A stretch of 35,768 nt of DNA. It comes from a virus. Positions 1,480 to 34,701 of this stretch are shown in pieces (the first letter of the stretch is position 1; every line of letters begins with the position of its first letter). The DNA is taken from the UHGV virus genome UHGV-1428581. One strand, given 5' to 3'. The position numbers and the translations under genes are program-made. Below the pieces are notes generated by a model. It was not told the origin of the DNA. It saw only the letters and a list, made by a program, of their open reading frames with translations, and did no database searches.

Positions 1480-1535
1480 GCCTTACCCCCATGGGGATCA
1501 CTATGTAGAGTAGTGTGAGGGTAAGGTGTGGTTCA

Positions 1536-1551
1536 GGTCGGAATCCCGACC
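1536..1551. promoter_or_regulatory. 16-bp palindrome GGTCGGAATCCCGACC (copy 1 of 5), 57 nt upstream of the holin start
   Basis: Perfect inverted repeat GGTCGG-AATC-CCGACC. Identical 16-mer at 4902 and 17735; degenerate copies at 6841 and 21689. Confidence 0.5.
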
Positions 1552-1683
1552 TTATCAACCAGGTAGGATATCCAAATCAACAGCAAGCTTTTCAGCGTCG
1601 CTGATTTCAACATTGTTTTCTTCAATGGCTACTGATTCCTGCCGATACTCAAGATTTTCCTCTGACAGATAGTTTTCTTCCAT

Positions 1684-4600
1684 TTACGCCCAGCCTTTGG
1701 ATTTAATGAATCGCGCTACAAAATCTGCGTTGACCTGAACACCTGACCATAATGCATTAGCCTGACGATAACGCGACGGATGAAGGTTGTCATAACGCAG
1801 GGAGGATGGTGTTATGCCGTTTCCGATATCAGTTACATCCTGCGCATAATCAGGATTGTGGTGGTTTTTAAAGTTTTGCAGAAGATCCACCCCGCCGATT
1901 TCACAGTAGTTATCCGGCCAGGCCGCTTTGAGTTGCGCATTATAATTTGTCACAGTCGTTGCTCCTGCCGTTCCTGTCTTTTCATACGAATACGGGAATT
2001 CCGGCAGGATAACGAATTTCCCTGTACCCAGTGAATTGACGATAGCGGTCACATCGCTGATACCTTTAGCCCATGATGCGTTGTTTCGCATGCACTGGAT
2101 TATCACTATGTCATTTTTGAATGTCGGGTGGTCAGTCAGGTATTTTGTTGACCAGCTGTTCTGACGAACCCAGGACAATACAGTCATGGGTACCGCAGAA
2201 GGTACAGAAACAGCCTCACCCGGAGATGAGCGGGTGAATGTGATTTTTGACATATTTCCCCCAACATTTGTAGCGTTGATGATGCCCTCTACCCCGGCAA
2301 GTGTCACGTAGGCCCACGCTCCGCCATTCCATACAGCTTCTTCCTGTGGGGACAGTTCAACCGCGCCACTGGCGGGTATAACCCCACCTGCTGGCATGTA
2401 GGAATTTTTGTATGCGCCGAAAACAAGCGCGGTCTCTGTGGAGTTGGCACCGCCGCGAGCATAGTTAAACGCCCGCAGGCCCAGAGATTCAGAAACCCCG
2501 TTTGCAAAACCCTGTTCCGACAGAAACGAATGGCCAAACAGACTGATTCCGGTGGCGTCGTTTGTCTTTGTCGTTGTGTTTACCGTCGCTTTTGCGATTA
2601 ACCGGATGCGCGTTCCTGTCCCGATGCAAGCCGGGATATCACTGATAATGTCAGAGCCGTACCGCCTGGCAATGCATAGCTGCGCCGGATCGTCAGCGAG
2701 GAAGTAAGCAAAAAGCTCGCTGCCGGGCAGAAAGTTATTGTTCATCCCTGAAACGTAAGTCACTTCCACGCTTTGTTTTTTAAGCAAAAGCCCGTTCAGG
2801 GGGTTGAAAGTCCCGATATATAAATTTCCGTTCCCTCCACTTGCTGTCAGATGAAGGTCAATTTCATAGATAATCGAGTTATCATCAATCGTGTAAGCCG
2901 CGCTGGATGAAATCATGCTGATATTATTGTAACCGGCCCTCAGAACTGGCGTTGTAACCCCTTTATAATTTTTGAACTTCTGGGCGAAAAGCACTTCACG
3001 GATATAGCCAGATGCACCGTCATTGATAAAGTTGGTATCATCAAAGATAGTGTTAGTTCCGGATGCTGAATAGGAAAAATTATCGTTTTTAGTAGTATAT
3101 AGCCTGTTTCCCAGAATATTACAGTTGAACCCCGCAGCAGCCAGAGCCTGCCGGTTTTCCTTCAGGGAGTAAGCACCAAAAATAGTTTCATATTCGCTGG
3201 TTTTTTTACAGACATTATTAACAATGACTGCATCACTGGATGCATAAATCCAAAAGTCTACGGTACGGTTATCCTGAGAGAAGTTTCCGGATGCCTGAAT
3301 CCCGTTAACATTATTAGTTTCTGAGGGTGTTCCTGACACACCAATATCAATGCCACGGTTGAAATTATGCCTGACCGTATTATTTAAGTATTTATTTGAA
3401 TGCGAGTACGACCCGTTACCCCCAAGGTAGATACCAGACTGACCGTTGCATTCGCATGTGTTGTTGCTGATAGTGCAGCGCACAGAACCCTCCCCGGTAA
3501 TCCCATCCCAGAAAGGTGAAGTTGGATACCAGTCCTGTAAAAACTCATCAACAAAATGATTATTACAGTAATTATTGTCTATCAGAAAATCTTCACCACG
3601 ATGAGTAATCCCCATGGAGCAATACTGAATATCGCAAAACAAAATTTTGTTTCCGGCACCAGTACAGCGAATTCCATTGCTGAAGCCCATGACAGTATCA
3701 CCGGGCTTTCCGTTTATGGTCAGTCCATTGATTGTGCAGTCTTTCGAGTTTGCCTGGAGAAATACGCCGTATACCTGAACCGCTGAAATGCTCCCCTGAC
3801 CGCCCGTGTTGAAATAGACACCAAAGTTTTCAAGCCTTGACCCCACGCAAGCCATATTAAAAATAATGTGCATAGGTTCAGCGGGTGCTGTTTCCAGATA
3901 AACACCTGTTTCTGGCCCACCGCCACGGATTGTAACCCCATCCGGTATATCGAAAGACGATGATATTTTATATAGGGAACCCAATATTATTAATTTCACC
4001 GGGCCTTTTTTTGCGGCTTCAATGGTGCGATGAAGTGCCAATGAGAAATCATCATCGAGGGTTATATTTTCACTGAACATTTCAGGAGTCAGAAACCCAA
4101 GGCCGCCGATATTAGAAGCACCAGTAGGTTTTGCCAGTTCAATCATAACATCGGATGCGGATCCAGATTCTGGCAGGATCATTATCGGATTGCCGTCATT
4201 ATTCATTGCGACAATCTTATTTCTCCGCATTACCACCGAAGGTAGAGAGCCTATGTAACTCTCAGGCACACGTAAAGTTCGTATGAAATTGGCGTCGATC
4301 TTCTGATCAAGTTTTTTATCTGCCTCTTTCCATGCGTCCGTATTAGCATCAATTTTGTCATCAACATACTTTTTAGTTGTAGCATCATTGTCATCAATCG
4401 GATCTCCGAGGTTGGCGATTCGATAACCATCAGCGTTAAATGGACCTCCACCAAACAATGGGCGGCGAAGTGCAACACCGAGGTAAATAAACGCGCGTTG
4501 AATGGCCATCCATAGCCGGTCGAAATCTTTGTTAACCGTGTCGGCCAGAAGGTCGCCGTTGTCCTGGTAATCAGTGAGCCTGTACGTCGGCGTTACACGC

Positions 4601-4821
4601 TCAAAAATGACCGTAGAGCCATTCGCCGGCGCGGTAAGAAAAGTAATCTCGCCGCCATTGGTATTACCCACACCTGACACGGTATAGCCGGACGTTACTT
4701 CATTGCCGTTGATTGTCACCTGAATATCGCTGGCGCTAATCAGGTAAAATTCATAGGCAAAGACAGTGGTCAGCCCGTTGGCAGTATAGATGTTATAGGG
4801 TGTCTGGTTCGGTACCGACAT
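1684..4821 (-). CDS. Tailspike / tail fibre: T7 gp17-like N-terminal tail-adaptor domain, central right-handed beta-helix (pectate-lyase-like depolymerase), additional C-terminal domain
   Basis: N-terminal segment (PYNIYTANGLTTVFAYEFYLISASDIQVTINGNEV) resembles the T7 tail-fibre N-terminal domain. The middle region has beta-helix repeat character (NNTCECNGQSGIYLGGNGSYSHSNKYLNNTVRHNFNRGIDIG). Start set at the internal Met (MSVPNQ) at 4821, with GGAG upstream and 18 nt after the TerL stop. Confidence 0.8.
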   Translation of the reverse strand: MSVPNQTPYNIYTANGLTTVFAYEFYLISASDIQVTINGNEVTSGYTVSGVGNTNGGEITFLTAPANGSTVIFERVTPTYRLTDYQDNGDLLADTVNKDFDRLWMAIQRAFIYLGVALRRPLFGGGPFNADGYRIANLGDPIDDNDATTKKYVDDKIDANTDAWKEADKKLDQKIDANFIRTLRVPESYIGSLPSVVMRRNKIVAMNNDGNPIMILPESGSASDVMIELAKPTGASNIGGLGFLTPEMFSENITLDDDFSLALHRTIEAAKKGPVKLIILGSLYKISSSFDIPDGVTIRGGGPETGVYLETAPAEPMHIIFNMACVGSRLENFGVYFNTGGQGSISAVQVYGVFLQANSKDCTINGLTINGKPGDTVMGFSNGIRCTGAGNKILFCDIQYCSMGITHRGEDFLIDNNYCNNHFVDEFLQDWYPTSPFWDGITGEGSVRCTISNNTCECNGQSGIYLGGNGSYSHSNKYLNNTVRHNFNRGIDIGVSGTPSETNNVNGIQASGNFSQDNRTVDFWIYASSDAVIVNNVCKKTSEYETIFGAYSLKENRQALAAAGFNCNILGNRLYTTKNDNFSYSASGTNTIFDDTNFINDGASGYIREVLFAQKFKNYKGVTTPVLRAGYNNISMISSSAAYTIDDNSIIYEIDLHLTASGGNGNLYIGTFNPLNGLLLKKQSVEVTYVSGMNNNFLPGSELFAYFLADDPAQLCIARRYGSDIISDIPACIGTGTRIRLIAKATVNTTTKTNDATGISLFGHSFLSEQGFANGVSESLGLRAFNYARGGANSTETALVFGAYKNSYMPAGGVIPASGAVELSPQEEAVWNGGAWAYVTLAGVEGIINATNVGGNMSKITFTRSSPGEAVSVPSAVPMTVLSWVRQNSWSTKYLTDHPTFKNDIVIIQCMRNNASWAKGISDVTAIVNSLGTGKFVILPEFPYSYEKTGTAGATTVTNYNAQLKAAWPDNYCEIGGVDLLQNFKNHHNPDYAQDVTDIGNGITPSSLRYDNLHPSRYRQANALWSGVQVNADFVARFIKSKGWA

Positions 4822-4838
4822 ACGAGGGACTCCGGCGG

Positions 4839-6449
4839 CTAGTAATCTACGGCGACCATGTGATCGCCATCGTTTGGTTGCCAATGTTCCCGCGCCTGTG
4901 CGGTCGGAATCCCGACCAATTTACCAATGCGCACTGGTGTTGAACTGATAGCGCCGGAGCCGGAGTCGATAAAGTCATCGGGCTGATTAGTCAGCGCCGG
5001 GTTAAAGTCGCGCATCTGGTCGTACATTGGGCCGTCGAGCACGTCGGTATGCGCCCAGAGGAACTGCGACGACAGCGGTGCCTCGAAGGCATCGAGGATG
5101 CGTTTTTGCTTGTTGGTGACGCTGAACTCTTCCCGTACGCCGCAGCCGGTACCCTTCAGCGCCTGAATCAACAGTTTCCCGGCGAAGCTGCCCGGGCCGT
5201 TCACTTCAACGCATACCAGCGGGATCTGATACTTCAGCACCAGTTCTTTAATCTGCATCACCTGACCGCCGGTGATTTTGTCGTTGTCGTCGAATTCAGC
5301 CAGTTCACCGGTAAGCCCCTGACAAACATGCCAGTACAGGTGTCCTCGTGCGTCGGTGAAAATCAGGGAGAATGCCGAGGCATCAGCCTTAACTTTGCCG
5401 GTGGCCACATCCCACCACGCGACAGCACCAACTATTTGTGTCTGGCCCAGCCACATCGAGCAGGAGCGGTTCGCGTATCGGATTTCGGGCTGGACGTTAT
5501 ACTCGCGGATACGGTCGGGATCGAGTCGAACTTTACCAATCGGTTTACTGTGCAGCTGGTACTGGCTGTCCCATTCGTTGACGGTGCGGCACTCTTTACG
5601 GCGCAGCAGCAGTTCATCATGATCGAAACGGCCCGGCCACGCGCAACCGGCGTAAAAATCCACGACCGTTTCGGGCGGCGCCGCGAACTCTACGCCGTCT
5701 TCCGTCAATCGGTAATCAGTACCCTCGATCAGTAGCCTGGCGGCTTTGTGGATCCCCACGAAAACATATTCCGGGCGGAACGGTACCCGGTATCGTTTTC
5801 TGGTCGCCTTCTTCGCTTCGACGCGATGCTCTTTATCGAACAGCTTTATCGTGAGGCAATCAGCGCCCTCCGCTTCTTTTTCATCGTAAAGGCTGTCGTG
5901 GGTATGCGGAGTACCGATGAACAACTTACGGCCTCCGGGTATCAAAATATGCGTCTGCTCGCTTAGGCGATAGCGCAGTTTTTCGCGAGCCTCCGGAGTC
6001 TGGATATTGCCGGGTACCTCCACGTCATCATTCTGGCACTCGTTGGCACGGGCGCCGGTAACGTTCGACAGAATGCCTTTTGCGAACATGCTGGCGTTAC
6101 GCATATCCAGCGCGCCGTTTACCCACCATTGCTCGATGGTACCGATGCCGTCAGGCAACATGCCTTTCGTCAGTGGATGGTTGCGCAGAACGTTTTGTGT
6201 ATCGCGGCTGGTCTTTCTGGCGGTCGTATCGGATTCTGACTGGTGCAAAATGCGGTACTGGCGATCGCAGTAATACCGCCAGGCGTTATAAACGCCCAGG
6301 ATAGTGGATTTACCAAAGCCACGAAAACAGCGAAGCACCGCGAGGTTTCCGCGATGCTCCAGCCAGTGGCAGGCTTTATAGTGGCAGTCCGGCACATCCC
6401 AGTTCATCCGCTCCGCCCACATCAGGAAAAAGGCGAGGAACGAAATCAT
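4839..6449 (-). CDS. Terminase large subunit
   Basis: 536 aa. Walker A motif FRGFGKSTILG near the N-terminus. C-terminal nuclease-like domain with acidic residues. ATGA overlap with the upstream small terminase gene. Confidence 0.85.
   Translation of the reverse strand: MISFLAFFLMWAERMNWDVPDCHYKACHWLEHRGNLAVLRCFRGFGKSTILGVYNAWRYYCDRQYRILHQSESDTTARKTSRDTQNVLRNHPLTKGMLPDGIGTIEQWWVNGALDMRNASMFAKGILSNVTGARANECQNDDVEVPGNIQTPEAREKLRYRLSEQTHILIPGGRKLFIGTPHTHDSLYDEKEAEGADCLTIKLFDKEHRVEAKKATRKRYRVPFRPEYVFVGIHKAARLLIEGTDYRLTEDGVEFAAPPETVVDFYAGCAWPGRFDHDELLLRRKECRTVNEWDSQYQLHSKPIGKVRLDPDRIREYNVQPEIRYANRSCSMWLGQTQIVGAVAWWDVATGKVKADASAFSLIFTDARGHLYWHVCQGLTGELAEFDDNDKITGGQVMQIKELVLKYQIPLVCVEVNGPGSFAGKLLIQALKGTGCGVREEFSVTNKQKRILDAFEAPLSSQFLWAHTDVLDGPMYDQMRDFNPALTNQPDDFIDSGSGAISSTPVRIGKLVGIPTAQAREHWQPNDGDHMVAVDY
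4902..4917. promoter_or_regulatory. Palindrome GGTCGGAATCCCGACC (copy 2), inside the 3' end of the TerL coding region, 81 nt upstream of the tailspike start
   Basis: Exact 16-mer; encodes VGIPT in TerL. Confidence 0.5.
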
Positions 6450-6793
6450 TTTTTGCCTTTTTGTTGCAGCCTCTCGATCACTTCCAGCGCTTTACGTTCA
6501 GCAGCTGCTACCTGCTGACCTAACTGGAACGCTTCATCGTCCGGATCCTCCCCGCCGGGTTTAGGCGTTCCCCCGCGCGTGTGCATGCCAATCAGCGAGT
6601 GGACTTTTACCAGCAGCGTCAGCGATGCGGCCGCGTTCTTCTTATGCCAGTAGCGGTCGCCGCGTTCCTGTTTTGTGTGCTTTGTGATTTCCTTCCCTGC
6701 CCCCGGCCAGTTGTCCGGATCGGCTTCTTCCAGAACTACATCGGTGAGCTTATCGCTAAGAGCGGTCAGGCGGGTTTTGTAATCTGAATGCAT
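6446..6793 (-). CDS. Putative terminase small subunit
   Basis: 115-aa basic/acidic protein immediately upstream of, and translationally coupled (ATGA) to, the terminase large subunit. Called by position; no motif seen. Confidence 0.5.
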   Translation of the reverse strand: MHSDYKTRLTALSDKLTDVVLEEADPDNWPGAGKEITKHTKQERGDRYWHKKNAAASLTLLVKVHSLIGMHTRGGTPKPGGEDPDDEAFQLGQQVAAAERKALEVIERLQQKGKK

Positions 6794-6796
6794 AAA

Positions 6797-6822
6797 AAAG
6801 CCCCGTGGTTATCCATGGGGCT
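6797..6822 (-). terminator. Rho-independent terminator on the minus strand whose U-tract runs directly into the TerS start codon
   Basis: Minus-strand RNA AGCCCCAUGG-AUAA-CCACGGGGCU followed by UUUUUUAUG. The stem is 10 bp with one mismatch. No other SD between the stem and the ATG. Confidence 0.6.
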
Positions 6823-6840
6823 ATGATGTATGCTTTTCGA

Positions 6841-6856
6841 GGTCGGAATCCTGACT
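6841..6856. promoter_or_regulatory. Degenerate copy of the palindrome (GGTCGGAATCCTGACT), copy 3
   Basis: 13/16 identity to the consensus. It sits between TerS and the plus-strand moron. Confidence 0.35.
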
Positions 6857-6874
6857 ATTACAAGGAGCATAAGA

Positions 6875-7396
6875 ATGAAAAAACTAATACCTTTATTGCT
6901 AATTTTTCCCTTTATTGCCTTTTCCTCCACAGATTTAGTTGAGGATTCAGGATATATCGTACCAATATCAGGCCCAGGAATACAAATTACTAACCCGTAC
7001 ACTGATTATAAGGTCATTAGCGGTATCGACAACGGTAAAAAAATTGTACTAAATGTGTCGGTATTAAACCTACGTACCTACAAAGAGAATGCAGACCTAA
7101 GCGAATCTAATAAAAATTATGCTGAAGGAAGTAAAACTATATACAGTTATGGCGATAACGTTTATACAAAGGATTTTATAAAATTCTCCTCGGAAGCCGC
7201 TATAAACTCGACAAAAGAAGACTTAAAAAAATTATATTGTACACCTGATGATATTTACCCTATGTCATCACAGGAGAGACTATTCTACGAAGCAAGGAAA
7301 GAACATAAGATAATAATGCTCAATTACTACAGTGATTCAGGAAAAACCCTCATATTTGGGTTTGGGGTTTCTCCAGAATCATGTAAATCGAAATAG
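6875..7396 (+). CDS. Moron: low-GC secreted or periplasmic protein of unknown function, encoded antisense to the late operon
   Basis: 173 aa. AAGGAG 7 nt upstream of ATG. Sec-type signal peptide (MKKLIPLLLIFPFIAFSS). The gene is strongly AT-rich relative to flanking phage DNA. Its stop abuts the stop of the convergent 1001-aa gene (TAGCTA). Confidence 0.75.
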   Translation: MKKLIPLLLIFPFIAFSSTDLVEDSGYIVPISGPGIQITNPYTDYKVISGIDNGKKIVLNVSVLNLRTYKENADLSESNKNYAEGSKTIYSYGDNVYTKDFIKFSSEAAINSTKEDLKKLYCTPDDIYPMSSQERLFYEARKEHKIIMLNYYSDSGKTLIFGFGVSPESCKSK

Positions 7397-10300
7397 CTAT
7401 CGCATACCAGGGTCTACTTGGTTAATCAGTGGTGCAATCCAGAACAGATTATTACCGGGTAACAGCGTACGCACGCTATGCAGCACACGGTCGCCAGCGT
7501 CACCATTCAGCACGCCGGCGGTCACATCGGTTACAGTATCCAGCAGGCCGAAGGTCGGCCCCAATGCAGAACCGATAAAGCCGCGGCTGGCGTAACGGGA
7601 TTGCGTACCAGTGCCGAGTAATGATCCTAACCCCAAAGCCCCGCCAGTTGCCTTCTCCGCCATGTTGTTGTATTCCATCAGCGGGCCAAGGATACCGGAA
7701 CGGTCAATACCCTCGAGTGCCAGTTTTTGCGGCGACCAGTCGATCTCTTTACCATTTGCCGCTTGTTTAAGCGCATACGTGAGCGCTCCGAGCGCAATTT
7801 GAAAGGCAGTACCATAGTAAAACTGCGCGCTCCCTTCTGATAAACCACCAATTGTTGCACGGTTATATGATGCAGTCGTAAACGAGCGGAACTGGAATAC
7901 CGTACGCCCAATTGGAGAGCTGGCCCATAAAGGCGTGTCTCCAACACCCGGAGTGATAATGATGTTGTTTGTGTCCTTCATAACAGCCGACTGAAACACG
8001 CCAGCGGCATAATCATCATCCCATTTGTCAAAATTACCGATGTGCCAACCATCAATCACCTCGCCATGCTTACGAAACTGTTCGTTTATGCGCGCGGCTG
8101 TGGCTGGACTTATACCCAACTTAGCAACTCTGGAAGCAGGAACGGCCCCCGAAAGAATGCTGTCAGCAGTCACCATTCCATTAATTGCTTTGTTAATGTC
8201 GTTATATTGCCCCATCAGGGTAAGCTTTCCGAATACGTCAGTAACACGATCCAGCCCAGCCTCAGCGGCGTTCGTACGGGTAGAGCTGTCAACCAGATCG
8301 GCCATTAACCGCGAGCGGGAGTTAAGCACCGTTTCGACCATAATACCCATCTTTTTCATTTCGCTTTTGTTAGCAGCGAATGCCGGTGATTTGGAAATTA
8401 GTGCACCATAACCCTTCATAGTTTTGCCAAATCCATTGACCATGACGCCGCGAGCAAGGTCGGGAATAGCTGAAACAGTCATGCCGCCCAGTTTAGTTAC
8501 AAAGTTTACGTTACGCATAGCACGGCCAGCGCGGACAAAGAAAGATGATGGGTCGTCAGGCATGCCATATGTACCGACCAACCGATCCCGCATGGCTGTG
8601 ATATCCCGGATATCATTCTCACGGGCTTTGGCTAATTTAGACTGTTCCTTTTTAATCCTGGACTCTAATTCTTCGTCCATTTTATCCAGTTTATTTTGAG
8701 GTACCGAAGAGTTTCCATTTTTACTGGCTTGTGATTGAAGCTGCCTAACTTTATCAGCATGCTCTGCCTTCAGTTTTTCAGGCACAGAACGGAGTAGGTC
8801 GTCGTACTCATCCTGTATAGCTTTAAGTTGAGACTCAAGGTTCCTGTGTCCAAACACTTTGGTTAATTCAATGTCCGGCGCAGCTTCCCGGATATGCCGC
8901 TGCAATACGTAGTTAGCATCACTCTCCAGATAGTCCCGCATCATTTTGTCCGGGAGGTTTAGAGTCCGCTGCCGCGAACTGCCAGGAACTTTAACGGTGA
9001 ACACATTCACGAAGTCTTGAGGTATTTTTGCGCCAACAATTTTATTGATCGTTGCATCTGCGGCGATTTCCGCATCTTCCCGTGACATAGCCGAAGCGCC
9101 ACGCGACCACCAGTTAACTAAAAGCTCACGGAATTTATCTCGTTCCTCCACAATTTTCCCAACTCTGTAGATTCGAGGGAAGTAACTGGTTTGGCCCAAT
9201 GCTTTTAACTCAGCGTCAGGTGGTAGTAAGCCAAGATCCTGCTGAGCAACTTTTACCCTATCGACTACCTGACGCAATGCACGCGCGGCATCCTGAACAG
9301 CAGCGTTACCGTGGATATCACCATTTCTCATGGCGTCGCCAACTTCTTCACGGAATCGGGTATAGTTTAAATCTCCGCCGTCAGCCTTATATTTAGCGTA
9401 TGCCTGCTTATTTGTAACCACTACAGCGGCTTCCTCCCTTCGCCAGCCGCGTACACGGGTTTCAGCGGCTACGGGAGTCTCGAACCCGCGTTGATTACCG
9501 CGCAGCGCAAAGTTATTTTCCGCTAGTTCCAGTGCTGTGATCCGCGCGTTGCGTGACGGCGACGATATAACACGTGATATAGGCGTCATGTACCCGCCAG
9601 CTTTTAACGCAATATCTGCAGCCTTTCCTCCGTCAAGAGTGAGGTCGTCAAGAGTTGCCTGTTTTATCCGCATAGCGCCCACGCTTCCACCATCAGGTAG
9701 GCTGTCTATGCCACGATTAATAGCGTTAGCCGTACCTACATTTTCAAGTGCATCGGCCATTTCACGTGTGGCTGCGGCTCTGACTCCGGGGGATAGAATT
9801 GCACCAGCACTTGCGAAAATACCGCTGAACATAGCTCCGGCGGTGATATGCGCTGCACTTTCACCCAGTGTCCTTGTGAACTGCTGGTTATTAAGTGCAA
9901 CTTCGCTAAGTGCGGTACCGGCGGCACCGATCGCTACCTGCGAACCGATACGCGCGGCCAAAGTACCCTGTGCGCCAGGAATGAACATTGACGCTACGGT
10001 AACCGGGTCGATAACACCCGCAGCAATGCTTGCTAACGTACCTTCCGCCCCCGCCTCTGAAAGTACGCGCCGGTCTTCATTTTCCTCGTCAATTTTATTT
10101 TTAATCCAAGCGGTTTCCTCTGGTGACTGAGAATCAGCGAACACCGATCCCCATTGCTCATAGCCATGAATTTCATTCTTATCTGTGTAAGGGTTGTACC
10201 CTTCGGCTGGTTCAAATTGCTTAGCCGGGCGGAATATTCCCGCCAGCAGGTTATTCTGTCGAAATGCTGCATTCCATACAGAAGGCCCAGCCTGCTGCGG

Positions 10301-13116: not shown

Positions 13117-13121
13117 GTCAC

Positions 13122-13610
13122 TTACTCCGCATATAAACCGTATTTGCCTGTTTTTGCTTTTTTCCAGCCGCTGTATGCGGTACCGCCAGCACTCAGTAAT
13201 GAACTGCCAGCACTAATATTCCCCGCTGTCGCCGCATTACTGCCGCTGATCCTGTCGGCTTGTGCCTGCGCCTGCAGGCGATTAGAAGAATTCACGCCAT
13301 TAAGGATCGTCTGGTATGCGTCCTGCTCCGCATCCCCGGTAATACCTGACGTGACACGCAGCGCCGTTCCCTCACCCGTTTCAACGCCTGAAGCCGCCAT
13401 TGCAGCGTTAGCCGCAGCGGCCTGCTGGCGACCGGCTTTACGAATACGCTCCGCTTCCACTCGGGCAGTAGCCTTTGCAGCTTCGGCGTCGGCTTCAGCC
13501 TGCGCGGCCTGATAGTTCGCCATTTTCTTTTGCTGCTGGCCGCTGGCCACTGCACCACCAGCAGCGAGAACAGAAGAAGCCACCAACGCGATTTCAACAC
13601 CTGTACACAT
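13122..13610 (-). CDS. Small internal virion protein with N-terminal TM helix (T7 gp14-position)
   Basis: 162 aa from the internal Met (MCTGVEIALVASSVLAAGG). GGAGG 7 nt upstream. Ala/Gln-rich. Starts 2 nt after the GNAT stop. Confidence 0.5.
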   Translation of the reverse strand: MCTGVEIALVASSVLAAGGAVASGQQQKKMANYQAAQAEADAEAAKATARVEAERIRKAGRQQAAAANAAMAASGVETGEGTALRVTSGITGDAEQDAYQTILNGVNSSNRLQAQAQADRISGSNAATAGNISAGSSLLSAGGTAYSGWKKAKTGKYGLYAE

Positions 13611-13612
13611 CG

Positions 13613-14062
13613 TTAAACCTCCATCGAATAAAGCAGCCCGGTACTTTGCAGACCGAGGCGGGAATAAAGCTGGCCAGTACGTTCGGCATGTACGCCAGTC
13701 GTGATCCCCATGTTGATCACTGCGGCGCCATGTTCTTTCGACCATTCGATAAACGCACGGGCCAGTCGTGGGCCAGCGCTTCCGCCCCGATGCTCCGGAG
13801 CGACGAACAGGCCATATTCAAACGCCATCAACTGGCGGGAAAAAAACTGCTCCGCGATACCGCCGCCGAGCCAGCCAATCACCTGTCCATTCTTTTCAGC
13901 TACCAGCACGCAGCCGGCGGCGGAATAAATCAGGCTCTCAGCCAGTTCCGCGCATTTGTCCGCGTCAAAAGGTGAGTTTTCGGAATAGCGGGATTCCAGA
14001 TACATCCGGGTTCCCAGTTCAATAAGCGCCGGAATATCACCGGCGGTTGCATTGCGGATCAT
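13613..14062 (-). CDS. GNAT-family N-acetyltransferase embedded in the virion module (T7 gp13-position)
   Basis: 149 aa. Acetyl-CoA binding motif A (QVIGWLGG ... VAPEHRGGSAGPRLARAF). Typical GNAT length. Confidence 0.7.
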   Translation of the reverse strand: MIRNATAGDIPALIELGTRMYLESRYSENSPFDADKCAELAESLIYSAAGCVLVAEKNGQVIGWLGGGIAEQFFSRQLMAFEYGLFVAPEHRGGSAGPRLARAFIEWSKEHGAAVINMGITTGVHAERTGQLYSRLGLQSTGLLYSMEV

Positions 14063-14064
14063 CG

Positions 14065-16056: not shown

Positions 16057-16619
16057 CAGAACCTCGATTCATAAGTTGGATAGCCGTCCAATGTTTCCGG
16101 CGGTTCTTCCTGCCCGTCGATAGATTTAGCCTGGCGAAGAAGGTATGCAGCTTCCTGCGTCAGACTGTCGCGCAGACTCGCGGAGCCGGTGACGGCGTAC
16201 GCCAGTTTTGCGGCCATGAACGCTTCGGCCAGATTGACCAGCGACGAATCCCACGTTGACTCATCCTCGTTACGAAACAGGTAGCGCAAATAAATCACGT
16301 TCTGGTTGGCCAGCAGCCGGTTTCCTTCAACGCGGTACCCGATATCCTCATACTCACGGCCAATGGACAGGATCCGGATTAAATCGCCCGGTAGCGGGAA
16401 CTGGTAGCCGAAACCAAATGCGGGCGCGGTGCTGGACGGTGAGAGCACAACGCGTTTTACCGCGCAGTTCCATGGATGTTTTCGCAGCAGGTCGTTGCGT
16501 ACGGTGGGGTAAATATTGGAGCACAGGCGGGCGTGTTCGGTCGCTTCGTTGAAGCTGTTAATTGGATGGGCGCCGAGCGCCAGCAGTGCGTTAGAACAGA
16601 TAGAGATACTGGAAGCCAT
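16056..16619 (-). CDS. Tail tubular protein A (T7 gp11-like)
   Basis: 187 aa, about the same size as T7 gp11. The N-terminal region (ICSNALLALGAHPINSF...) resembles the gp11 family. Placed immediately after the capsid gene, as in T7. Confidence 0.6.
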   Translation of the reverse strand: MASSISICSNALLALGAHPINSFNEATEHARLCSNIYPTVRNDLLRKHPWNCAVKRVVLSPSSTAPAFGFGYQFPLPGDLIRILSIGREYEDIGYRVEGNRLLANQNVIYLRYLFRNEDESTWDSSLVNLAEAFMAAKLAYAVTGSASLRDSLTQEAAYLLRQAKSIDGQEEPPETLDGYPTYESRF

Positions 16620-16634
16620 AGCCTTACCTCAGAT

Positions 16635-16662
16635 GAAAAAAGGCCGGGAGGGATCCCCCGGC
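16635..16662 (-). terminator. Rho-independent terminator after the major capsid gene (minus strand)
   Basis: Minus-strand GCCGGGGGAUCCCUCCCGGCC followed by UUUUUU. Terminators after capsid genes are typical. Confidence 0.6.
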
Positions 16663-16678
16663 AAAGGCACCAGCGGCT

Positions 16679-17584
16679 TTATGCTACAAAATCGATGGCA
16701 ACGACTTTCTTCTCGTTGGCGCGGCCAGCACCATAGGACGCATCAACGGAAATCTGGATGGTGTTATTTTTATCGCGGCGCGGGCCAATATCGACGTTGT
16801 ACTCGGCGCCGGTACCGAAATGCACAGCGGATTTACACCAGGCGGCGGCGGTTTTGGTGGTGACGCTTTCGGCAGTGGCAGAATCCAGCTTCTCGTATGC
16901 CAGCCAGTTAAAGCCCAGCCATTTAGACGACACCGCACCTTCCTGAAGCATTTTCACCGCCATAAAGTCGGCACTGGTCAGCGTGGTATCGCTGAGGATC
17001 TGCGTCAGCATGTCGGCGTTGTAAGTCATGTACAGTTCTTCACCGTTCTGCTCGTCACACTCGTTACGGCGGAACATGGCTTTTGCTGCGATCAGCTTGG
17101 CTTTGGTCATGCCGGTACCACCAGCAACGATTTTCTGCGAGGCCGGGAGCGTAACGGATGCATACGCGCCGTTGTTCTCGGTCTTGCGCAGTACCGCATC
17201 CAGCAGCGCGCGATAAATAACATCGTCTTTTTTGCGGTTGGCGGCGGACAGGGTGAGCTGCAAATACGGCCCCTGAGGGTCGGCAATCAGCTTGCGCAGG
17301 TCGCGTTTCTCAACCGGCACGAAAACGCCGTAGTCGGCCATCAGCGCATTACGGGTACCGGCTTCCGGAACATCCCAGACGGTATCACCGAAACGCGTGG
17401 TGATCTGGGTCATCTCAATGGTACCCATATCGTTGATGGTGAACGACGCACCGGTGATGCTGCCACGGTCATGGACAGCCGCTTGCAGGCGCGAATCCTT
17501 TTGCTGTGCAGCAATTTCGAAAGAATCATGAAACTGCGTAACAAACGCAGCGGTGATCATGTTCTTGTTTGCATCAAATGACAT
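16679..17584 (-). CDS. Major capsid protein (T7 gp10-like)
   Basis: 301 aa from the internal Met (MSFDANKN) with GGAG 8 nt upstream. The N-terminal region pattern resembles T7 gp10 (FVTQFHDSFEIAAQQKDSRLQAAVHDRGSITGASFTIN vs T7 FLKVFGGEVLTAFARTSV..RSISSGKSAQFPV). Confidence 0.8.
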   Translation of the reverse strand: MSFDANKNMITAAFVTQFHDSFEIAAQQKDSRLQAAVHDRGSITGASFTINDMGTIEMTQITTRFGDTVWDVPEAGTRNALMADYGVFVPVEKRDLRKLIADPQGPYLQLTLSAANRKKDDVIYRALLDAVLRKTENNGAYASVTLPASQKIVAGGTGMTKAKLIAAKAMFRRNECDEQNGEELYMTYNADMLTQILSDTTLTSADFMAVKMLQEGAVSSKWLGFNWLAYEKLDSATAESVTTKTAAAWCKSAVHFGTGAEYNVDIGPRRDKNNTIQISVDASYGAGRANEKKVVAIDFVA

Positions 17585-17734
17585 AAAAATCACTCCAGTA
17601 AAAAATCGCCTGCGGGGTGTCGGTTTCCCGGCCCAAATCAGCACAATGCGGTTGGCGCTGGCGCATTGCGGGAGAAATCAGGTATCCGGCGTCCCCACCG
17701 GGCTGGTTATGGAGTGATTGTTATCGAGGTGCGC

Positions 17735-17750
17735 GGTCGGAATCCCGACC
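17735..17750. promoter_or_regulatory. Palindrome GGTCGGAATCCCGACC (copy 4), in the long 5' leader of the capsid gene
   Basis: Exact 16-mer immediately downstream (minus-strand sense) of the terminator at 17751-17779. Confidence 0.5.
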
Positions 17751-17779
17751 AAATAAAAAAGCCAGCGGGTTAGGCTGGC
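17751..17779 (-). terminator. Rho-independent terminator after gene 17804-18220 (minus strand)
   Basis: Minus-strand GCCAGCCUAACCCGCUGGC followed by UUUUUUAUUU. Confidence 0.6.
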
Positions 17780-17803
17780 TTCTGGTTGTGACTGGTCACG
17801 GTG

Positions 17804-18220
17804 TTACTTGTTTTTACAGGCGCCCTGGCCGGAGTAGCAGTTTTCACACATGCGCTCATCGGTACACTGCTCACTGAGCTTTTGTTTCAGCAGGTAACCT
17901 TCCAGCATCCAAATCTTGTTAACCGCATTCTCGCGGGCAATCTTGCGACCGATCTCCGGGTCGAAGTTTTGCGGGCTGGCGCAGGCGCTTTCGCCCGTGA
18001 CGGTGAAGCCGTTGTGCAGCACCAGAACACAAATCGTCAGCAGGTTCAGCGCTGGGCTGCAATCGTCCATTGCCGACTTATCAGGCCAGCCCGCCTGAAC
18101 CGCTTCGCCGACGTTGAGATAATGGCACTCTTTGATAACGCTCTCGATATGATCAGGCGTAACGCGCGGCGCGGTTAAGCCTTTAGCCTGAATTTGCTGC
18201 TCGATATCTTTGTCGCTCAT
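17804..18220 (-). CDS. Hypothetical 138-aa protein with Cys-rich C-terminus, inserted between scaffold and capsid genes
   Basis: Uses the conserved GAGGAAAGACCAATG initiation module. C-terminus CTDERMCENCYSGQGACKNK. Has its own terminator. Confidence 0.6.
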   Translation of the reverse strand: MSDKDIEQQIQAKGLTAPRVTPDHIESVIKECHYLNVGEAVQAGWPDKSAMDDCSPALNLLTICVLVLHNGFTVTGESACASPQNFDPEIGRKIARENAVNKIWMLEGYLLKQKLSEQCTDERMCENCYSGQGACKNK

Positions 18221-18253
18221 TGGTCTTTCCTCTGGTTAGGTTGTCGTGACATG

Positions 18254-19102
18254 TCACGCTACAGTTTGATCACCGTAACGCTTCTGGTAGTACGCGCGAA
18301 CCCGGGCGGAAACGTTCTCATGGTCGGCGTGTTTCGGATCCATGTAGGCCGGGGACTTCATCAGGTCGCGGACTGATTGCTGCTCTTCGAGATTCACATC
18401 GCCGCCCGCCGGCGCATCCTCCTGCATTTCAGCGCCGATTTTCGCCAGCATGCGGATCACCATCGGGTTATTGCCGATTTCATCCATGCGTCCTTTGTCG
18501 CTGTCATCCGCCAGAGAGTTAAATGCCCGGAAAGCCAGACCGATGTTTTTATTAAACTCGGCGTCAGTTTTCCACGTCTCGCGCAGCTGCGTGGCGGCGG
18601 CTTCCGAATCCAGCGCCGCAGCACCGTTAACCAGTTCGGGGGCCAGCTGTGCATATTCGCCCAGGATGAAACCCATCTGATCGTTGGTGATGCCTTTGGC
18701 ATGCGCTGACTTCATGAAGGATTGCATGCGCGGGTCGGCTTTGAATTCGTCCCACTTAAAGCCCTCGACCTCTACCTTTGGCGCATACTCATCAGCAGTT
18801 TTCGGCGGCGTGTCCCCGCTGCCCATGCGCTTTTCAAGGTGCGAGTAAGCATCCGCCAGTTTGCGGGCTGAGCCTTCAACGTTGAGTTTTCCGTCATCGC
18901 CCATAACGCGGTATTTTTCAGGTAGCCAGTCATCCGCGCCTTGTTCGCCCGCGCCGGTGCTGAGTAGCGAAGTACCAGCAGGAGTACCGCCGCCCGGATT
19001 TTGAGTACCATCGCCATTACCAGCATCATCCCCTCCTGCGTTACCTGCTGGCGCGTCTGCGCCTGTTTCGGTGTTCATGAATAAATGTTTAAACTTCCAC
19101 AT
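18254..19102 (-). CDS. Capsid assembly scaffolding protein (T7 gp9-position)
   Basis: 282 aa, acidic and Gly/Ala-rich, located between portal and capsid genes. The start could alternatively be at 19078 (MNTETG). Confidence 0.6.
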   Translation of the reverse strand: MWKFKHLFMNTETGADAPAGNAGGDDAGNGDGTQNPGGGTPAGTSLLSTGAGEQGADDWLPEKYRVMGDDGKLNVEGSARKLADAYSHLEKRMGSGDTPPKTADEYAPKVEVEGFKWDEFKADPRMQSFMKSAHAKGITNDQMGFILGEYAQLAPELVNGAAALDSEAAATQLRETWKTDAEFNKNIGLAFRAFNSLADDSDKGRMDEIGNNPMVIRMLAKIGAEMQEDAPAGGDVNLEEQQSVRDLMKSPAYMDPKHADHENVSARVRAYYQKRYGDQTVA

Positions 19103-19322
19103 CGTCGTTTACTCCGTCTGCTTTGTTGATTTGCATCAGAATGAAATCGAGCACGGATCGCTGTCCGGCCCGGTAACAGGTTTCGCGGTCGCCCTCGGTA
19201 CCACCTTTGACATATGCCTCACGGCCAAAGCGGCGCGTTAGTTCTTCCATCACCTGCGGCCCGCCTGGCATTTCTTCGAAAATGCGCCGGTAGTCTTCAG
19301 GGGTTACGTCTTTTTTGATCAT
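19089..19322 (-). CDS. Hypothetical 77-aa protein between portal and scaffold genes
   Basis: ORF coupled to the portal gene (overlap at 19319-19322). Confidence 0.45.
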   Translation of the reverse strand: MIKKDVTPEDYRRIFEEMPGGPQVMEELTRRFGREAYVKGGTEGDRETCYRAGQRSVLDFILMQINKADGVNDDVEV

Positions 19323-20944
19323 TGGTTGCCCGCCAGTCGTTGTCCCATAATTGCGCCTGCTGTCTGCCCTGCTGCGCCTGCGGCTTCCGTCCCGGCCTGC
19401 ATCAGCATCTGCTGTTGCGCCTGCTGCTGTTGCGCCTGCTGGCGCTGCTGTCGAAGTTGCTCGACCGCATCATCGGAGCGCATAACTTTTGCGGGAACGC
19501 CAAGCGCTTCGCCGACAACCTTGCTCGCCTCGTCGCTGTCCATGTTGTCCAGTACATCGGGGTACGCCTGCGCCAGCTGCATGATGTTCTGGCCGTAGCG
19601 CTCGATGGCGGTCACATCTTCCAGCTTCTGCGCGCGGGCCAGCGGGGAGATATAACGCACGTTGAAGTTGGCGCTCTGGAGGCTCTCGGGTGCGGGAGGG
19701 AAAACGCCAGCACGGAACGCAATACCGAAGCAGCGCTCCACCAGCGGTTGCAGGTATTCAGCCTGGAAACGGCCATAGACCGGGCCGAGCAACTGGCGGA
19801 TCAGCGCGACACGCACATGCACTTCGGTAGCGGTCATTGCCGGGCCGTCCTGCGGTTGCAGCTGGTCGGCCATCATGATTTTGCGGATGGAAGCCTGCAG
19901 GCGTTCTTCAGCGGTAAATGCGACGTTGAAATCTGCGCCAGTGAGCAACGGTTTCATGCTGTCGGTGCTGTTCGCCACGATGATGCGGCGTGGGCCGACT
20001 TTGACCGTGCGCGGGTTGAGTACGCCGTCATCTTCAGCAATCCACATCCCGGAGATAGCCAGATCCTGCGCGGCCTTCTCCATGCGTTTGGTTTCGTTCA
20101 GCTCTTTGCAATCCGGCAGCGCGTCGTATACCGGGCCGATGCCGTAGGAGCCGCCGGGGATTTTCATCCAGCGCGGGACGCATACAGGGAATTCGTGATA
20201 GCCTGATTCACGCACGATACGCTTGCCGCTCACTTCCACGTTGAAAGATGCAAAGCGCATGTTGCGCGCCAGCTTCGCATTTACGGCGTAGGTATCGCGC
20301 GGGAAAATGCAGTGCAGGAAATCAAATTTATCGTCGGGTTTGTTTTTTGCAGCATCGCGGATTTTTTCGCTTACCTTGTCCGCGCCAAATTCTTTCACGG
20401 CCTGTTCAGCGGTGAGCTGATAGCAGCGATAAATCGTGTCTACAATGCCGTCCCGGCGGGTGGAGGTCACAAAGCATTGCGCCAGCGGCCACTGCTGAAA
20501 GGTAAATCCGCCCTCTTCCTTGTCCTCATCGACGTACAGCGCGAACCAGCCAGCGCAGACCACATCGAGATTGGCCTCGTACCCTTCCGCGTCAAAGTTA
20601 GCGGCGTGGATATTTTCCCATACCAACGTTGCACAGGTGGACAACCACGCCTTAGCGTCATCAGGCAGTAATTCGCTGTCGAGGTTCAGCCATTGAGCAT
20701 TCGCCGGGGTCATCCCTGACATAAGCGCGGACGCCAGCATGCGGGCGCTGTCGGTGGCTGTGCCGTCCAGCAGCTTTGCAACCTTATGTTTCGCGCTTTG
20801 TGCGTCCAGCACCTCAGACGAAAACCCGGCCCCGCGCAGCGGATAGGTGTAGTCGTAGCACTCCCGCCAGACGCTTTCGTGCACCTGGCGATTTGCTTTC
20901 AGCGTGTCAGCGCGCCTGATTAACCGGCTGGCGAGTTGATCCAT
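19319..20944 (-). CDS. Portal (head-to-tail connector) protein, T7 gp8-like
   Basis: 541 aa (T7 gp8 is 536 aa). Gln/Ala-rich C-terminal tail (QQRQQAQQQQAQQQMLMQAGTEAAGAAGQ) resembles the T7 gp8 C-terminus. Confidence 0.8.
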   Translation of the reverse strand: MDQLASRLIRRADTLKANRQVHESVWRECYDYTYPLRGAGFSSEVLDAQSAKHKVAKLLDGTATDSARMLASALMSGMTPANAQWLNLDSELLPDDAKAWLSTCATLVWENIHAANFDAEGYEANLDVVCAGWFALYVDEDKEEGGFTFQQWPLAQCFVTSTRRDGIVDTIYRCYQLTAEQAVKEFGADKVSEKIRDAAKNKPDDKFDFLHCIFPRDTYAVNAKLARNMRFASFNVEVSGKRIVRESGYHEFPVCVPRWMKIPGGSYGIGPVYDALPDCKELNETKRMEKAAQDLAISGMWIAEDDGVLNPRTVKVGPRRIIVANSTDSMKPLLTGADFNVAFTAEERLQASIRKIMMADQLQPQDGPAMTATEVHVRVALIRQLLGPVYGRFQAEYLQPLVERCFGIAFRAGVFPPAPESLQSANFNVRYISPLARAQKLEDVTAIERYGQNIMQLAQAYPDVLDNMDSDEASKVVGEALGVPAKVMRSDDAVEQLRQQRQQAQQQQAQQQMLMQAGTEAAGAAGQTAGAIMGQRLAGNQ

Positions 20945-20947
20945 GAA

Positions 20948-21169
20948 TTAAGCCCCTAACGTATTTTTTGCGGCCTGTGCGCCAGTGGACAGCAGGGAAG
21001 AACCTGTATCCGTCGCGCCTTCTGCGCCGCTGGCCAGCAGGGATGATCCCTGTTTGCGCTTTTTGCGCGCTGCTGCGTCAGCGTTCGCAGCTTTGGCCGC
21101 TGCGTCTGCTGCTGCATCGGCTTCGGCCTGCGGGTCTGACTGAACAACTTTGGGTGCGCTACCACACAT
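20948..21169 (-). CDS. Small Ala-rich virion protein (T7 gp7.3-position)
   Basis: 73 aa, low complexity (AEADAAADAAAKAANADAAARKKRK...SSLLSTGAQAAK), immediately upstream of the portal gene. Confidence 0.45.
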   Translation of the reverse strand: MCGSAPKVVQSDPQAEADAAADAAAKAANADAAARKKRKQGSSLLASGAEGATDTGSSLLSTGAQAAKNTLGA

Positions 21170-21179
21170 AAAATTCTCC

Positions 21180-21650
21180 TTAGCCCGGAACGTGCCAGCC
21201 GTGTTCGGTTAATACCGGCGCGCTGCGTACGGGTTGCTTTTTGCCTTCCTCGTTTGTCACCTGCTCCGCCGTACCGCCAGTGCTTACATCAGTGGCTTTG
21301 TGTACGAGGGTGAGGAAATCGAGGTTATTGGTCAGCGGGTGGCCGAGGCTGTCAGTGAAGGCGTACTCTTCGAAGCGGGCAACGATGGCAGCGCCCTGCG
21401 CGTTGAGCGTGGCGAGAATGGCGTTGCGGCCTGCAAGCAACAGTGCCTCTTTGCTCGGCTGCGGTTCATCAATGGTGACTACCAACTTGCCTTCAACGTT
21501 CTGTACGTCGCTACCGTTTCCCTGCTGCTGCGCGCCGTTCTGTTCAGCAGTAATTAACTGCCCCTCTGTAACGAGCGTTTTTTCTTCCGGCGCCGCTTTT
21601 TCCTGCCCCGGCGTCTCAACGATTTTTTTCGGTCGAGCCATTTTTTTCAC
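21180..21650 (-). CDS. Hypothetical virion-associated protein, first gene of the morphogenesis block (T7 gp6.7/gp7-position)
   Basis: 156 aa; called by position. Confidence 0.45.
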   Translation of the reverse strand: MKKMARPKKIVETPGQEKAAPEEKTLVTEGQLITAEQNGAQQQGNGSDVQNVEGKLVVTIDEPQPSKEALLLAGRNAILATLNAQGAAIVARFEEYAFTDSLGHPLTNNLDFLTLVHKATDVSTGGTAEQVTNEEGKKQPVRSAPVLTEHGWHVPG

Positions 21651-21668
21651 TCCTGAATTAGTGAGTCG

Positions 21669-21965
21669 TCATTGTGTGTTGCCCTTCTGGTCAGTTTCCC
21701 GACCAAAAACAGGGCGGCGGAACGTCCACCACTGCCGGTAAAGCACAGTAGGGAGTTTTTTACGGTCTGAGCTGGTAGCCAGACACCAGAGAGCAATCAA
21801 CGCTTCACCGTGACCGTGGCGAGGCTCTGATCCAGATTTCCAGCCGAGGACGGCGGATTTTGAAACGCCAAGTTCATCGGCGATTTGCTGAGTGGTGAGG
21901 TTTTTTCGGGTCAGGTCGGTAATGACTCTGAACCAGTCTGTACGGAAGGTGGCGACCAGCGGCAT
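21669..21965 (-). CDS. Small HTH DNA-binding protein at the early/late boundary (candidate late-gene regulator)
   Basis: 98 aa. Helix-turn-helix LTTQQIADELGVSKSAVLGW. GGGGG SD upstream. Its 3' end contains the degenerate palindrome copy 5. Confidence 0.5.
   Translation of the reverse strand: MPLVATFRTDWFRVITDLTRKNLTTQQIADELGVSKSAVLGWKSGSEPRHGHGEALIALWCLATSSDRKKLPTVLYRQWWTFRRPVFGRETDQKGNTQ
21689..21704. promoter_or_regulatory. Degenerate palindrome GGTCAGTTTCCCGACC (copy 5), 39 nt upstream of the first morphogenesis gene
   Basis: 12/16 identity to GGTCGGAATCCCGACC with both outer arms retained. Confidence 0.35.
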
Positions 21966-22120
21966 AAATCAGCCCCCTAAACGCGCGCGTGCGCGAGCAT
22001 AGAGAAGGGCAAAATCGCCGCCCGCCAGAATGAAAAAGGAGCCTGAACAGAATTTCATGCTTTCCGGACGCTTTGGCCAACCGCATTTTTTAGCGTTATC
22101 TGCTGCTCTTAGAGACGGAA

Positions 22121-34499: not shown

Positions 34500-34701
34500 A
34501 CTAACCGGAACCACTCTTAAATCCAGGCAATGCGAAGCACTGCGCCGGGCTGGTATCTTCTTCATAGAAAGGGCTGATGGACACCCAAAAACAACATGGG
34601 GCCACTTCACTAACCCGATAAAATACCGCAACCAGAACACCGAAGAGTTGCAGGAAGAAGAACCAGATTTCGGAGCGGTATTCAATGGCCGGAAAGCGTA
34701 A
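34456..34701 (+). CDS. xis: Excisionase-like protein (DUF4224-type)
   Basis: 81 aa. ISREEMIELTGTTLKSRQCEALRRAGIFF is typical of DUF4224 excisionase-like proteins. Immediately upstream of, and overlapping, int. Start uses GAGGAAAGACC-ATG. Confidence 0.6.
   Translation: MRHENDIISREEMIELTGTTLKSRQCEALRRAGIFFIERADGHPKTTWGHFTNPIKYRNQNTEELQEEEPDFGAVFNGRKA

Follow-up and report, generated by a model that had tools for sequence, protein, structure and literature searches.

The DNA analyzed here, the virus genome UHGV-1428581 (35,768 nt, hereafter called the window), is a prophage with an integrase gene at 34685-35701 and host-like or att-like sequence at 1-123. Its early region is lambdoid and encodes CI/Cro-type helix-turn-helix (HTH) proteins, a YdaT/CII-like protein, DnaB, NinB/DUF1367 and a Ref nuclease. 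The virion module is of the T7 type, with a Head-tail_con portal, a Phage_capsid_2 protein, a nozzle, a T7 tail-fiber N-terminus, a T7-type terminase and an SLT internal protein. T7-like phages serve in textbooks to show how a phage transcribes its late genes with an RNA polymerase of its own; Pfam and PHROG scans of the early and the large open reading frames (ORFs) of the window yielded neither such a polymerase nor a sigma factor or a Q protein. In this study, we describe a 16-bp site that recurs at five late-gene junctions of this prophage, the promoter-like sequences attached to it, and a 98-amino-acid (aa) HTH protein of the Cro/C1 type as the candidate late activator that would read it.

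On the plus strand, the exact 16-mer GGTCGGAATCCCGACC is found at 1536-1551, 4902-4917 and 17735-17750, and two degenerate copies are located at 6841-6856 (two mismatches) and 21689-21704 (three mismatches); a mismatch scan thereby confirmed the three exact and two degenerate copies listed in the initial annotation. With up to three mismatches allowed, the window contains eight strand-matches at five sites, while 0.23 are expected and none of 100 dinucleotide shuffles reached eight, so that the claimed excess over chance also holds. Since the late genes are encoded on the minus strand, the sense form of the motif is GGTCGGGATTCCGACC, and all five copies have the same polarity, that of these genes. 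Scanning the window with the family consensus RGTCRGGAWWCYGAMC gave precisely five sites at zero mismatches, no further site in the early region and none 5′ of the HTH gene; one additional look-alike with two mismatches lies at 17618-17633 in the capsid leader.

The initial annotation had described the motif as a perfect palindrome, which is wrong. Its arms GGTCGG and CCGACC (6 bp each) are complementary, but the 4-bp center AATC is not self-complementary (reverse complement GATT), so that two central bases differ in the reverse complement and the element is a 6+6 inverted repeat around an asymmetric center. The site can be written as rGTCrGGAwwCCGAmC. Among 21 distinct variants, G2, T3, C4, G13 and C16 are invariant, and G6, G7, A8, C11 and A14 are nearly so. 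The invariant core is GTC-N8-GAC, in which the centers of the GTC and GAC half-sites are 11 bp apart, a spacing that fits a dimeric HTH protein touching successive major grooves as at Cro/C1-type operators. With its dyad symmetry and half-sites separated by roughly one helical turn, the element has the pattern expected of an operator for a dimeric HTH protein. Of the two halves, the −10-proximal 3′ half TTCCGACC is better conserved than the 5′ half, which has G or A at positions 1 and 5; these unequal halves and the asymmetric center are consistent with a polar promoter context.

The five sites and their adjoining features, all on the minus strand, are named P1 to P5. The P1 motif (21689-21704, sense GGTCGGGAAACTGACC) lies in the non-conserved 3′ tail of the HTH ORF, directly 3′ of a terminator-like hairpin with a T5 run (21705-21732) at the end of early transcription. 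A −10-like hexamer CACAAT (21671-21676) follows this motif after 12 nt, and the ATG of the first late gene, for a 153-aa protein, at 21641 comes next with a gap of 47 nt between motif and start codon. The exact P2 motif (17735-17750; hexamer AACAAT, 17717-17722) comes directly after the intrinsic terminator that ends the P1 unit (17755-17780) and before a conserved and structured capsid mRNA leader of about 126 nt (17585-17710); the gap to the capsid ATG at 17584 is 150 nt, and a strong terminator follows the capsid gene at 16636-16662. P1 and P2 are thus placed directly behind terminator-like hairpins, which is a layout of separate transcription units. P3 (6841-6856, sense AGTCAGGATTCCGACC; hexamer CATCAT, 6823-6828) precedes TerS (ATG 6793, gap 47 nt), with a hairpin plus U6 of conserved structure (6794-6822) between its hexamer and the TerS AUG. 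The exact P4 motif (4902-4917) is embedded in the TerL codons for V-G-I-P-T and precedes the tail spike gene (ATG 4821, gap 80 nt); the last T of its hexamer GAACAT (4884-4889) does not vary, although it falls at a codon position that is synonymous or variable. The exact P5 motif (1536-1551; hexamer TACCCT, 1518-1523) is located before the holin-endolysin cassette (holin ATG 1479, gap 56 nt). The gene contexts given in the initial annotation (holin, TerL 3′ end, TerS, the position after a terminator upstream of the capsid gene, and the 3′ end of the HTH ORF) were correct. The copy at 17735, however, belongs to a promoter and not to the capsid leader, because it precedes a −10-like hexamer. Likewise, the proposed distance of 46-98 nt to the start codon applies to four sites and fails for the capsid gene, whose real ATG is at 17584.

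The anatomy of the promoters was obtained from a motif-anchored alignment of the copies in the window and in its relatives, which represent five junction classes with otherwise unrelated flanks. Common to all five classes are an A/T-rich trinucleotide 5′ of the motif, the motif itself, and a hexamer of the form NANNNT. After a 12-nt spacer, NANNNT is present at all five window sites and at every related site examined, the spacer being 11 nt in a few relatives. The class-weighted consensus is atT-gGTCgGGAttCCGACC-N13-A..aT, and its information content peaks at A2 and T6 of the hexamer, the two key bases of the sigma70 −10 element. If the hexamer is placed at −12 to −7, the motif covers the region from about −40 to −25 with its center near −32.5, and transcript starts are predicted near 21664, 17710, 6816, 4877 and 1511. 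A consensus promoter scan detected neither a sigma70 −35/−10 pair nor an extended −10 at the five sites, and the bases at the −35 position are GGATTC, unlike TTGACA.

Both the sites and their sense orientation are kept at the same junctions across related phages, as the initial annotation had anticipated for a functional element. Two E. coli prophages, L001 (83% identity) and L002 (78%), have the site at the identical five junctions and nowhere in their early regions or in the approximately 28 kb of host flanks scanned. In Yersinia phage YeP4, the site is located before the holin and capsid genes, and the P1 site is also present in L001, L002, L004-L012, L019-L021, L223 and L227. Searching one genome per species with the HTH protein gave 20 loci, from Raoultella, Enterobacter, Serratia, Symbiopectobacterium, Rosenbergiella, Pluralibacter, Sodalis, Pantoea, Pectobacterium, Mixta and Pseudoxanthomonas. 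Most of them have a sense-strand site just past the HTH gene, before the capsid gene, or both; in five of the 20 (three from Pantoea, one each from Mixta and Pseudoxanthomonas) the HTH homolog is not followed by late genes, and there is no site past the HTH gene. TerL had 523 relatives in IMG/VR, and 80 of these loci were kept for site mapping. All 80 have the site before TerS, in the 3′ end of TerL (+1532) and after the variable tail-spike cassette; 218 of the 219 sites are sense-oriented, and the three off-target matches do not exceed chance. The exact 16-mer occurs in 78 IMG/VR loci, 72 of which encode late proteins of this phage family. The five-site layout is found again in hundreds of T7-like temperate relatives without an RNA polymerase, whose DNA has a guanine-plus-cytosine (GC) content of 52% to 69%. 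Next to distant HTH homologs in DNA of 59-69% GC, the motif is still followed by the 12-nt spacer and NANNNT (GACACT, CACACT, GATTCT, GATGCT, AAACAT).

Since P4 overlaps a coding sequence, synonymous-position conservation within TerL, a check named in the initial annotation, could be assessed directly in 74 distinct TerL genes (median nucleotide identity, 80%). In the motif codons GTC-GGG-ATT-CCG-ACC (V-G-I-P-T), GTC, CCG and ACC are invariant, while GGG is kept in 73 and ATT in 72 of the 74 genes. This five-codon window is the least synonymously variable one in TerL (rank 1 of 532; gene-wide mean third-position entropy 0.97 bit), and the T at −7 of P4 is invariant although its codon alternates between CAT, GAT and AAT. 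Selection on the site within TerL therefore goes beyond coding.

The gene of the candidate reader (21669-21965, minus strand) encodes the 98-aa Cro/C1-type HTH protein with a conserved core of residues ~6-75. It closes the early-right operon and always stands immediately 5′ of P1. The protein is 99% identical to Klebsiella and Raoultella proteins; in L002 and YeP4, which have unrelated early modules (PolA, VapE, DUF2800), the equivalent position is taken by homologs of 47-53% identity. When all ORFs of the early region of the window were compared by tblastn with the early regions of L002 and YeP4, HTH alone was matched in both; two other marginal matches (E ~5e-4 to 8e-4) were each confined to one region. 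Among the non-structural genes, HTH alone accompanies the promoters in three unrelated early modules. Its family comprises 272 clusters (50% identity) at E<=1e-10 and 1268 at E<=1e-3, and the database names of its relatives are all "hypothetical protein". There was no Pfam match above threshold, no NCBIfam model and no sequence relative in the PDB. The AlphaFold2 model is confident over residues ~6-75, and the Foldseek matches were of the Cro/C1 type (P22 c2, C.BclI, C.AhdI, C.EcoT38IS, SinR, HipB, CapH). The family shares the signature DWFRV...GV.K.T..GWK.G.EP.H..GE.L..LW with a highly conserved recognition helix, matching the invariant DNA core. Some family members end in ...VGIPT or ...GRETDQ, i.e., in the translated motif, which means that the site adjoins the gene in those lineages as well. 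The most distant member checked, L229, has another gene context and no motif.

Two further observations concern the HTH gene itself. The C-terminal ~25 residues (21669-21740) are non-conserved and change frame among relatives; this tail appears to result incidentally from translation across the terminator and the P1 site. On the other side of the gene, just 5′ of its ribosome binding site (21982-21995, minus strand), a perfectly alternating pyrimidine-purine, CG-rich tract CGCGCACGCGCGCG of 12-16 nt is followed by TTT. This element is kept in all lineages, whether the gene before it encodes a Ref nuclease or a primase with iterons. It could form a small hairpin, act as a weak terminator, or serve as an operator through which the amount of the regulator is set. 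The iterons (ctagaccacc/ctagacaacc) flank an (AT)n tract in the interval between primase and HTH genes (L002 32663-32963, L003 17181-17511, and upstream of HTH in L011 and L019), and these arrays are probably the replication origin of the PolA/VapE-type early module.

We consider it probable, though well short of certain, that the five sites are activator-dependent late promoters of a T7-like temperate phage without its own polymerase, driven by the 98-aa HTH protein. According to this model, HTH would be made at the end of early transcription, its gene being the last of the early-right operon and thus in the position that Q has in lambda and lambdoid phages. As a dimer it would bind the 16-bp site, which would stand in for the missing −35 box, and the bound protein would recruit or stabilize host sigma70 RNA polymerase. 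Thereby, the units for head, capsid, packaging, tail spike and lysis would come on together. The P1 unit would comprise the 153-aa and 73-aa proteins, the portal and the scaffold, and the P2 unit the capsid, expressed via the structured leader, with tail and internal-virion genes reached by read-through of the capsid terminator. P3 would serve TerS and TerL, P4 the tail spike, and P5 holin, endolysin and spanin. We infer that HTH binds DNA, is a dimer, activates transcription and contacts RNA polymerase. The model is supported by the fixed spacing to the −10, the single orientation, the constraint within TerL, the dyad core, the Cro/C1 fold and the co-inheritance of gene and site. The initial annotation had already read the motif as a dimeric binding site at the starts of late transcription units with the 98-aa HTH protein as binder, and every computational test run was consistent with this proposal.

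Several points weigh against this model. The −10-like hexamers are weak, and their alignment with the motif was noticed post hoc. A site centered near −32.5 would also suit a repressor, and PHROGs labels the HTH family "transcriptional repressor". A weaker 5′ half and an asymmetric center are not required by a symmetric dimer. The Foldseek matches, with E values of 0.03-0.3 and target TM of ~0.6-0.7, give fold-level information only. Finally, the motif is near-constant wherever HTH adjoins it, so that no covariation between protein and DNA names the reader; an attempt with distant homologs was uninformative because the motif beside the late genes is almost unchanged.

One of these points leads to another reader of the same promoter element, which might be a host factor, a modified host polymerase, or the late 153-aa or 73-aa protein. 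The cis evidence holds whichever protein reads the site, and the 153-aa and 73-aa proteins, which are conserved, co-travel with the sites and have no assigned function, count in favor of this possibility and against HTH. As their genes lie downstream of P1, however, they could not start the cascade. The invariance of the motif from Enterobacterales to organisms of 69% GC argues against a host-specific reader, and HTH is the sole co-travelling protein of a DNA-binding type. We therefore regard a different reader as unlikely, if still worth keeping in mind.

XRE/Cro-type proteins are usually repressors, and HTH or another protein bound over the −35 region could in principle keep the late promoters off, for timing or in lysogeny. 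The PHROGs label and the overlap of the site with the −35 position agree with such an operator. But without a −35 box or an extended −10, and with a minimal −10, these promoters should be near silent unaided, so that a repressor would be unneeded. In addition, the HTH gene is located at the distal end of an early lytic operon and outside the immunity region, and the window yielded no further late activator and neither a Q protein nor a sigma factor. Repression through these sites is accordingly improbable in our estimate.

A still more doubtful proposal is that the site is a Q-like loading site, at which HTH would board RNA polymerase and enable it to read through downstream terminators. Features in its favor are the lambda Q position of the HTH gene, the hairpin plus U6 after the −10 of P3 (6794-6822), the strong terminator after the capsid gene, and the hairpin plus T-run that the distant relatives TPWB-05 and Piluca have at every late junction. 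An antiterminator would need just one promoter, however, whereas there are five separate ones here, and these look non-constitutive, as they have no −35 box. Moreover, Pfam and PHROG gave no Q-family match, and P1, P2, P4 and P5 are not separated from their genes by a terminator.

The alternative raised in the initial annotation, that the motif is an RNA hairpin (6-bp stem, 4-nt loop) acting as an RNase III-type processing or stability element in late transcripts, is extremely improbable, because the stem does not covary and the commonest variant is unable to fold. The canonical copy does fold at −11.1 kcal/mol (z = −3.4), and in L010 one double change (G5-C12 to A-T) retains pairing. Overall, however, stem covariation was no higher than in shuffles, 18 of 126 stem cells were unpaired, and the variant AGTCAGGATTCCGACC, which accounts for 59 of the 219 sites and is the consensus form before TerS and the holin gene, has a folding energy of −2.1 kcal/mol, no better than that of shuffles. 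At pair 5/12, some copies have an A.C and others a G.T mismatch, so that the RNA of neither strand would be consistently paired. RNase III requires about two helical turns (~20 bp) of double-stranded RNA, far more than a 6-bp stem offers, and the motif is upstream of the predicted transcript starts. No Rfam family matches the window.

Other identities of the motif were considered and rejected. ARAGORN detected no tRNA in the window, which disposes of a tRNA-like origin. The motif is not an intrinsic terminator, as it is followed by a GC-rich spacer without a U-tract and the T-runs at P1 and P2 belong to separate upstream hairpins. A host palindrome of the repetitive extragenic palindrome (REP) kind does not fit the near-uniform sense orientation (218/219), the chance-level number of off-target matches and the lack of copies in the approximately 28 kb of host flanks of L001 and L002; the check for copies outside the phage family covered these flanks and phage DNA.

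Several known systems resemble the proposed one in part, and from each of the families concerned it departs in at least one defining feature. Lambda CII, acting at PRE, PI and PaQ, is likewise a small HTH activator (97 aa) of several promoters with poor −35 and −10 elements, and its site, at ~−41 to −26, overlaps the −35 region in almost the arrangement proposed here. CII differs in being a tetramer on the direct repeats TTGC-N6-TTGC at lysogeny promoters, while the present site is an inverted repeat before late genes; HTH had no match to Pfam Phage_CII. The controller C-proteins of restriction-modification (R-M) systems (C.AhdI, C.BclI, C.PvuII) are ~80-aa dimers of the Cro/C1 type and are among the best fold matches of HTH. 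Their dyad operators lie at or near the −35 of promoters without a good −35 box, and they activate by contacting sigma70. However, C-proteins autoregulate their own operon via paired operators beside the R-M genes, whereas the HTH gene is not preceded by a site, its neighbors are a Ref nuclease or primase gene and late genes, and the five targets are dispersed. PhoB also replaces a −35 box from a site ~10-12 bp upstream of the −10; the likeness is in the geometry of the pho box, PhoB being a winged-helix response regulator on direct repeats. Mor and C of Mu, Ogr of P2 with Delta of P4, and Lpa of P1 similarly combine one activator and one site at −35-less late promoters with the host polymerase. 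They belong to other families (no Mor or Ogr match was found for HTH) and bind at ~−43.5, ~−55 and ~−22, respectively, compared with ~−32.5 here. In T7 itself, the homologous virion module is transcribed from class II/III promoters before genes 6.5, 9, 10, 13 and 17, and T-phi follows gene 10. The layout is thus alike in having promoters before head genes, capsid and fiber and a terminator after the capsid gene. In contrast to T7, no phage RNA polymerase was found here, and a sigma70-type −10 with an operator takes the place of the 23-bp T7 promoter. In siphophages of Gram-positive hosts, the small activators RinA, Ltr and ArpU are encoded just upstream of the packaging and morphogenesis genes and are needed for transcription of the late operon (PMC3753634). 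These activators are from unrelated families, and they usually act at one late promoter before terS and not at five.

Activator-dependent phage late promoters are a known kind of system; for the present protein family and site, no description was found in the searchable literature. The motif string was in no relevant paper found, the papers on YeP4 and APSE do not discuss promoters, and a literature search combining BPP-1 and Xfas53 with "late promoter" returned nothing relevant.

The RNA predicted downstream of three promoters has structures of its own. The capsid 5′ leader (~126-135 nt) is conserved in all relatives examined, and RNAalifold predicted three hairpins with seven pairs showing compensatory changes; without an Rfam match, it may be a stability or translation element, by analogy with the T7 gene 10 leader. 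Hairpin 3 of this leader (17618-17633, minus strand; GGCCGGGAAACCGACA) is the look-alike mentioned above and does not have the invariant T3. Its loop is GAAA, GCAA or GUAA in relatives, a GNRA pattern, and one stem pair covaries, so that it behaves as an RNA hairpin, unlike the promoter sites. At P3, a hairpin and a U6 run (6794-6822, minus strand) come directly after the −10 and before the TerS AUG, which has no Shine-Dalgarno sequence, and the stem sequence of the hairpin differs between the window and L002 with pairing kept. As the predicted P3 start (~6816) omits the 5′ arm, this hairpin might stop upstream read-through and spare P3 transcripts. The 5′ region of the holin gene (1481-1526, minus strand) could form a long hairpin, CCTTACCC...GGGTAAGG, that includes the −10 of P5 and the ribosome binding region. 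Its arms are conserved in L001 and L002, and it may be involved in control of holin translation.

The tail-spike cassette (1684-4821) is bracketed by the P4 (4902) and P5 (1536) motifs, and its length varies widely in L024-L103, where a distance of ~3.8-7.4 kb separates the P5 motif from the start of TerL; the cassette resembles a host-range module that can be exchanged together with a promoter of its own. An ORF with a lipoprotein-like signal sequence (6877-7396, plus strand) between the internal-virion genes and TerS is a probable moron within the late region, as is a gene of the Gp49/Sf6-gp66 family (17804-18220, minus strand) between scaffold and capsid, which is followed by its own terminator.

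Outside the family, the exact motif, the 12-nt spacer and GACACT were found in three siphovirus-like stretches (L111 5508-5532, L170 916-940, L222 10191-10215), after tail-chaperone-like genes and directly before a 46-aa membrane-protein ORF. The stretches of L111, L170 and L222 examined contained no homolog of HTH or of the late proteins, and the 46-aa gene may be a moron using the same promoter type. Acinetobacter phage TPWB-05 (L104) and Alcaligenes phage Piluca (L225), on the other side, have a homologous virion module and a diverged HTH homolog of ~134 aa (~40% identity). The 16-bp motif is absent from their late junctions, where a non-palindromic motif CACCCAACAAAC(C) stands before a hairpin, a T-run and the ATG at the equivalent positions. 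A de novo repeat search of TPWB-05 found nothing; this differing motif was obtained by reading the junctions by eye.

The relatives found with TerL are prophages of Klebsiella, Raoultella, E. coli, Serratia, Yersinia, Pectobacterium and insect symbionts, and HTH homologs with the motif adjoin portal genes of the T7 type, the GC content of the DNA reaching 69%. As a speculative and rather unlikely extension, HTH and its 16-bp site could be a portable, host-independent late switch, in which an XRE-type family has replaced the single-subunit RNA polymerase by supplying the −35 contact. Other elements might then also listen to it, e.g., the 46-aa gene of L111, L170 and L222 as a moron or "tripwire" fired by an activator of the family.

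For the annotation of these prophages, the results provide a rule, namely that the motif followed by 12 bp and NANNNT marks a late promoter, and proteins of ~80-100 aa from the HTH family that are now called "hypothetical" could be named late regulators. The sites P4 and P5 around the exchangeable tail-spike cassette are relevant to the engineering of host range. The timing of late genes in T7-like temperate phages without a polymerase had no description so far, and a concrete regulon can now be proposed for it, consisting of one protein, one site and five promoters.

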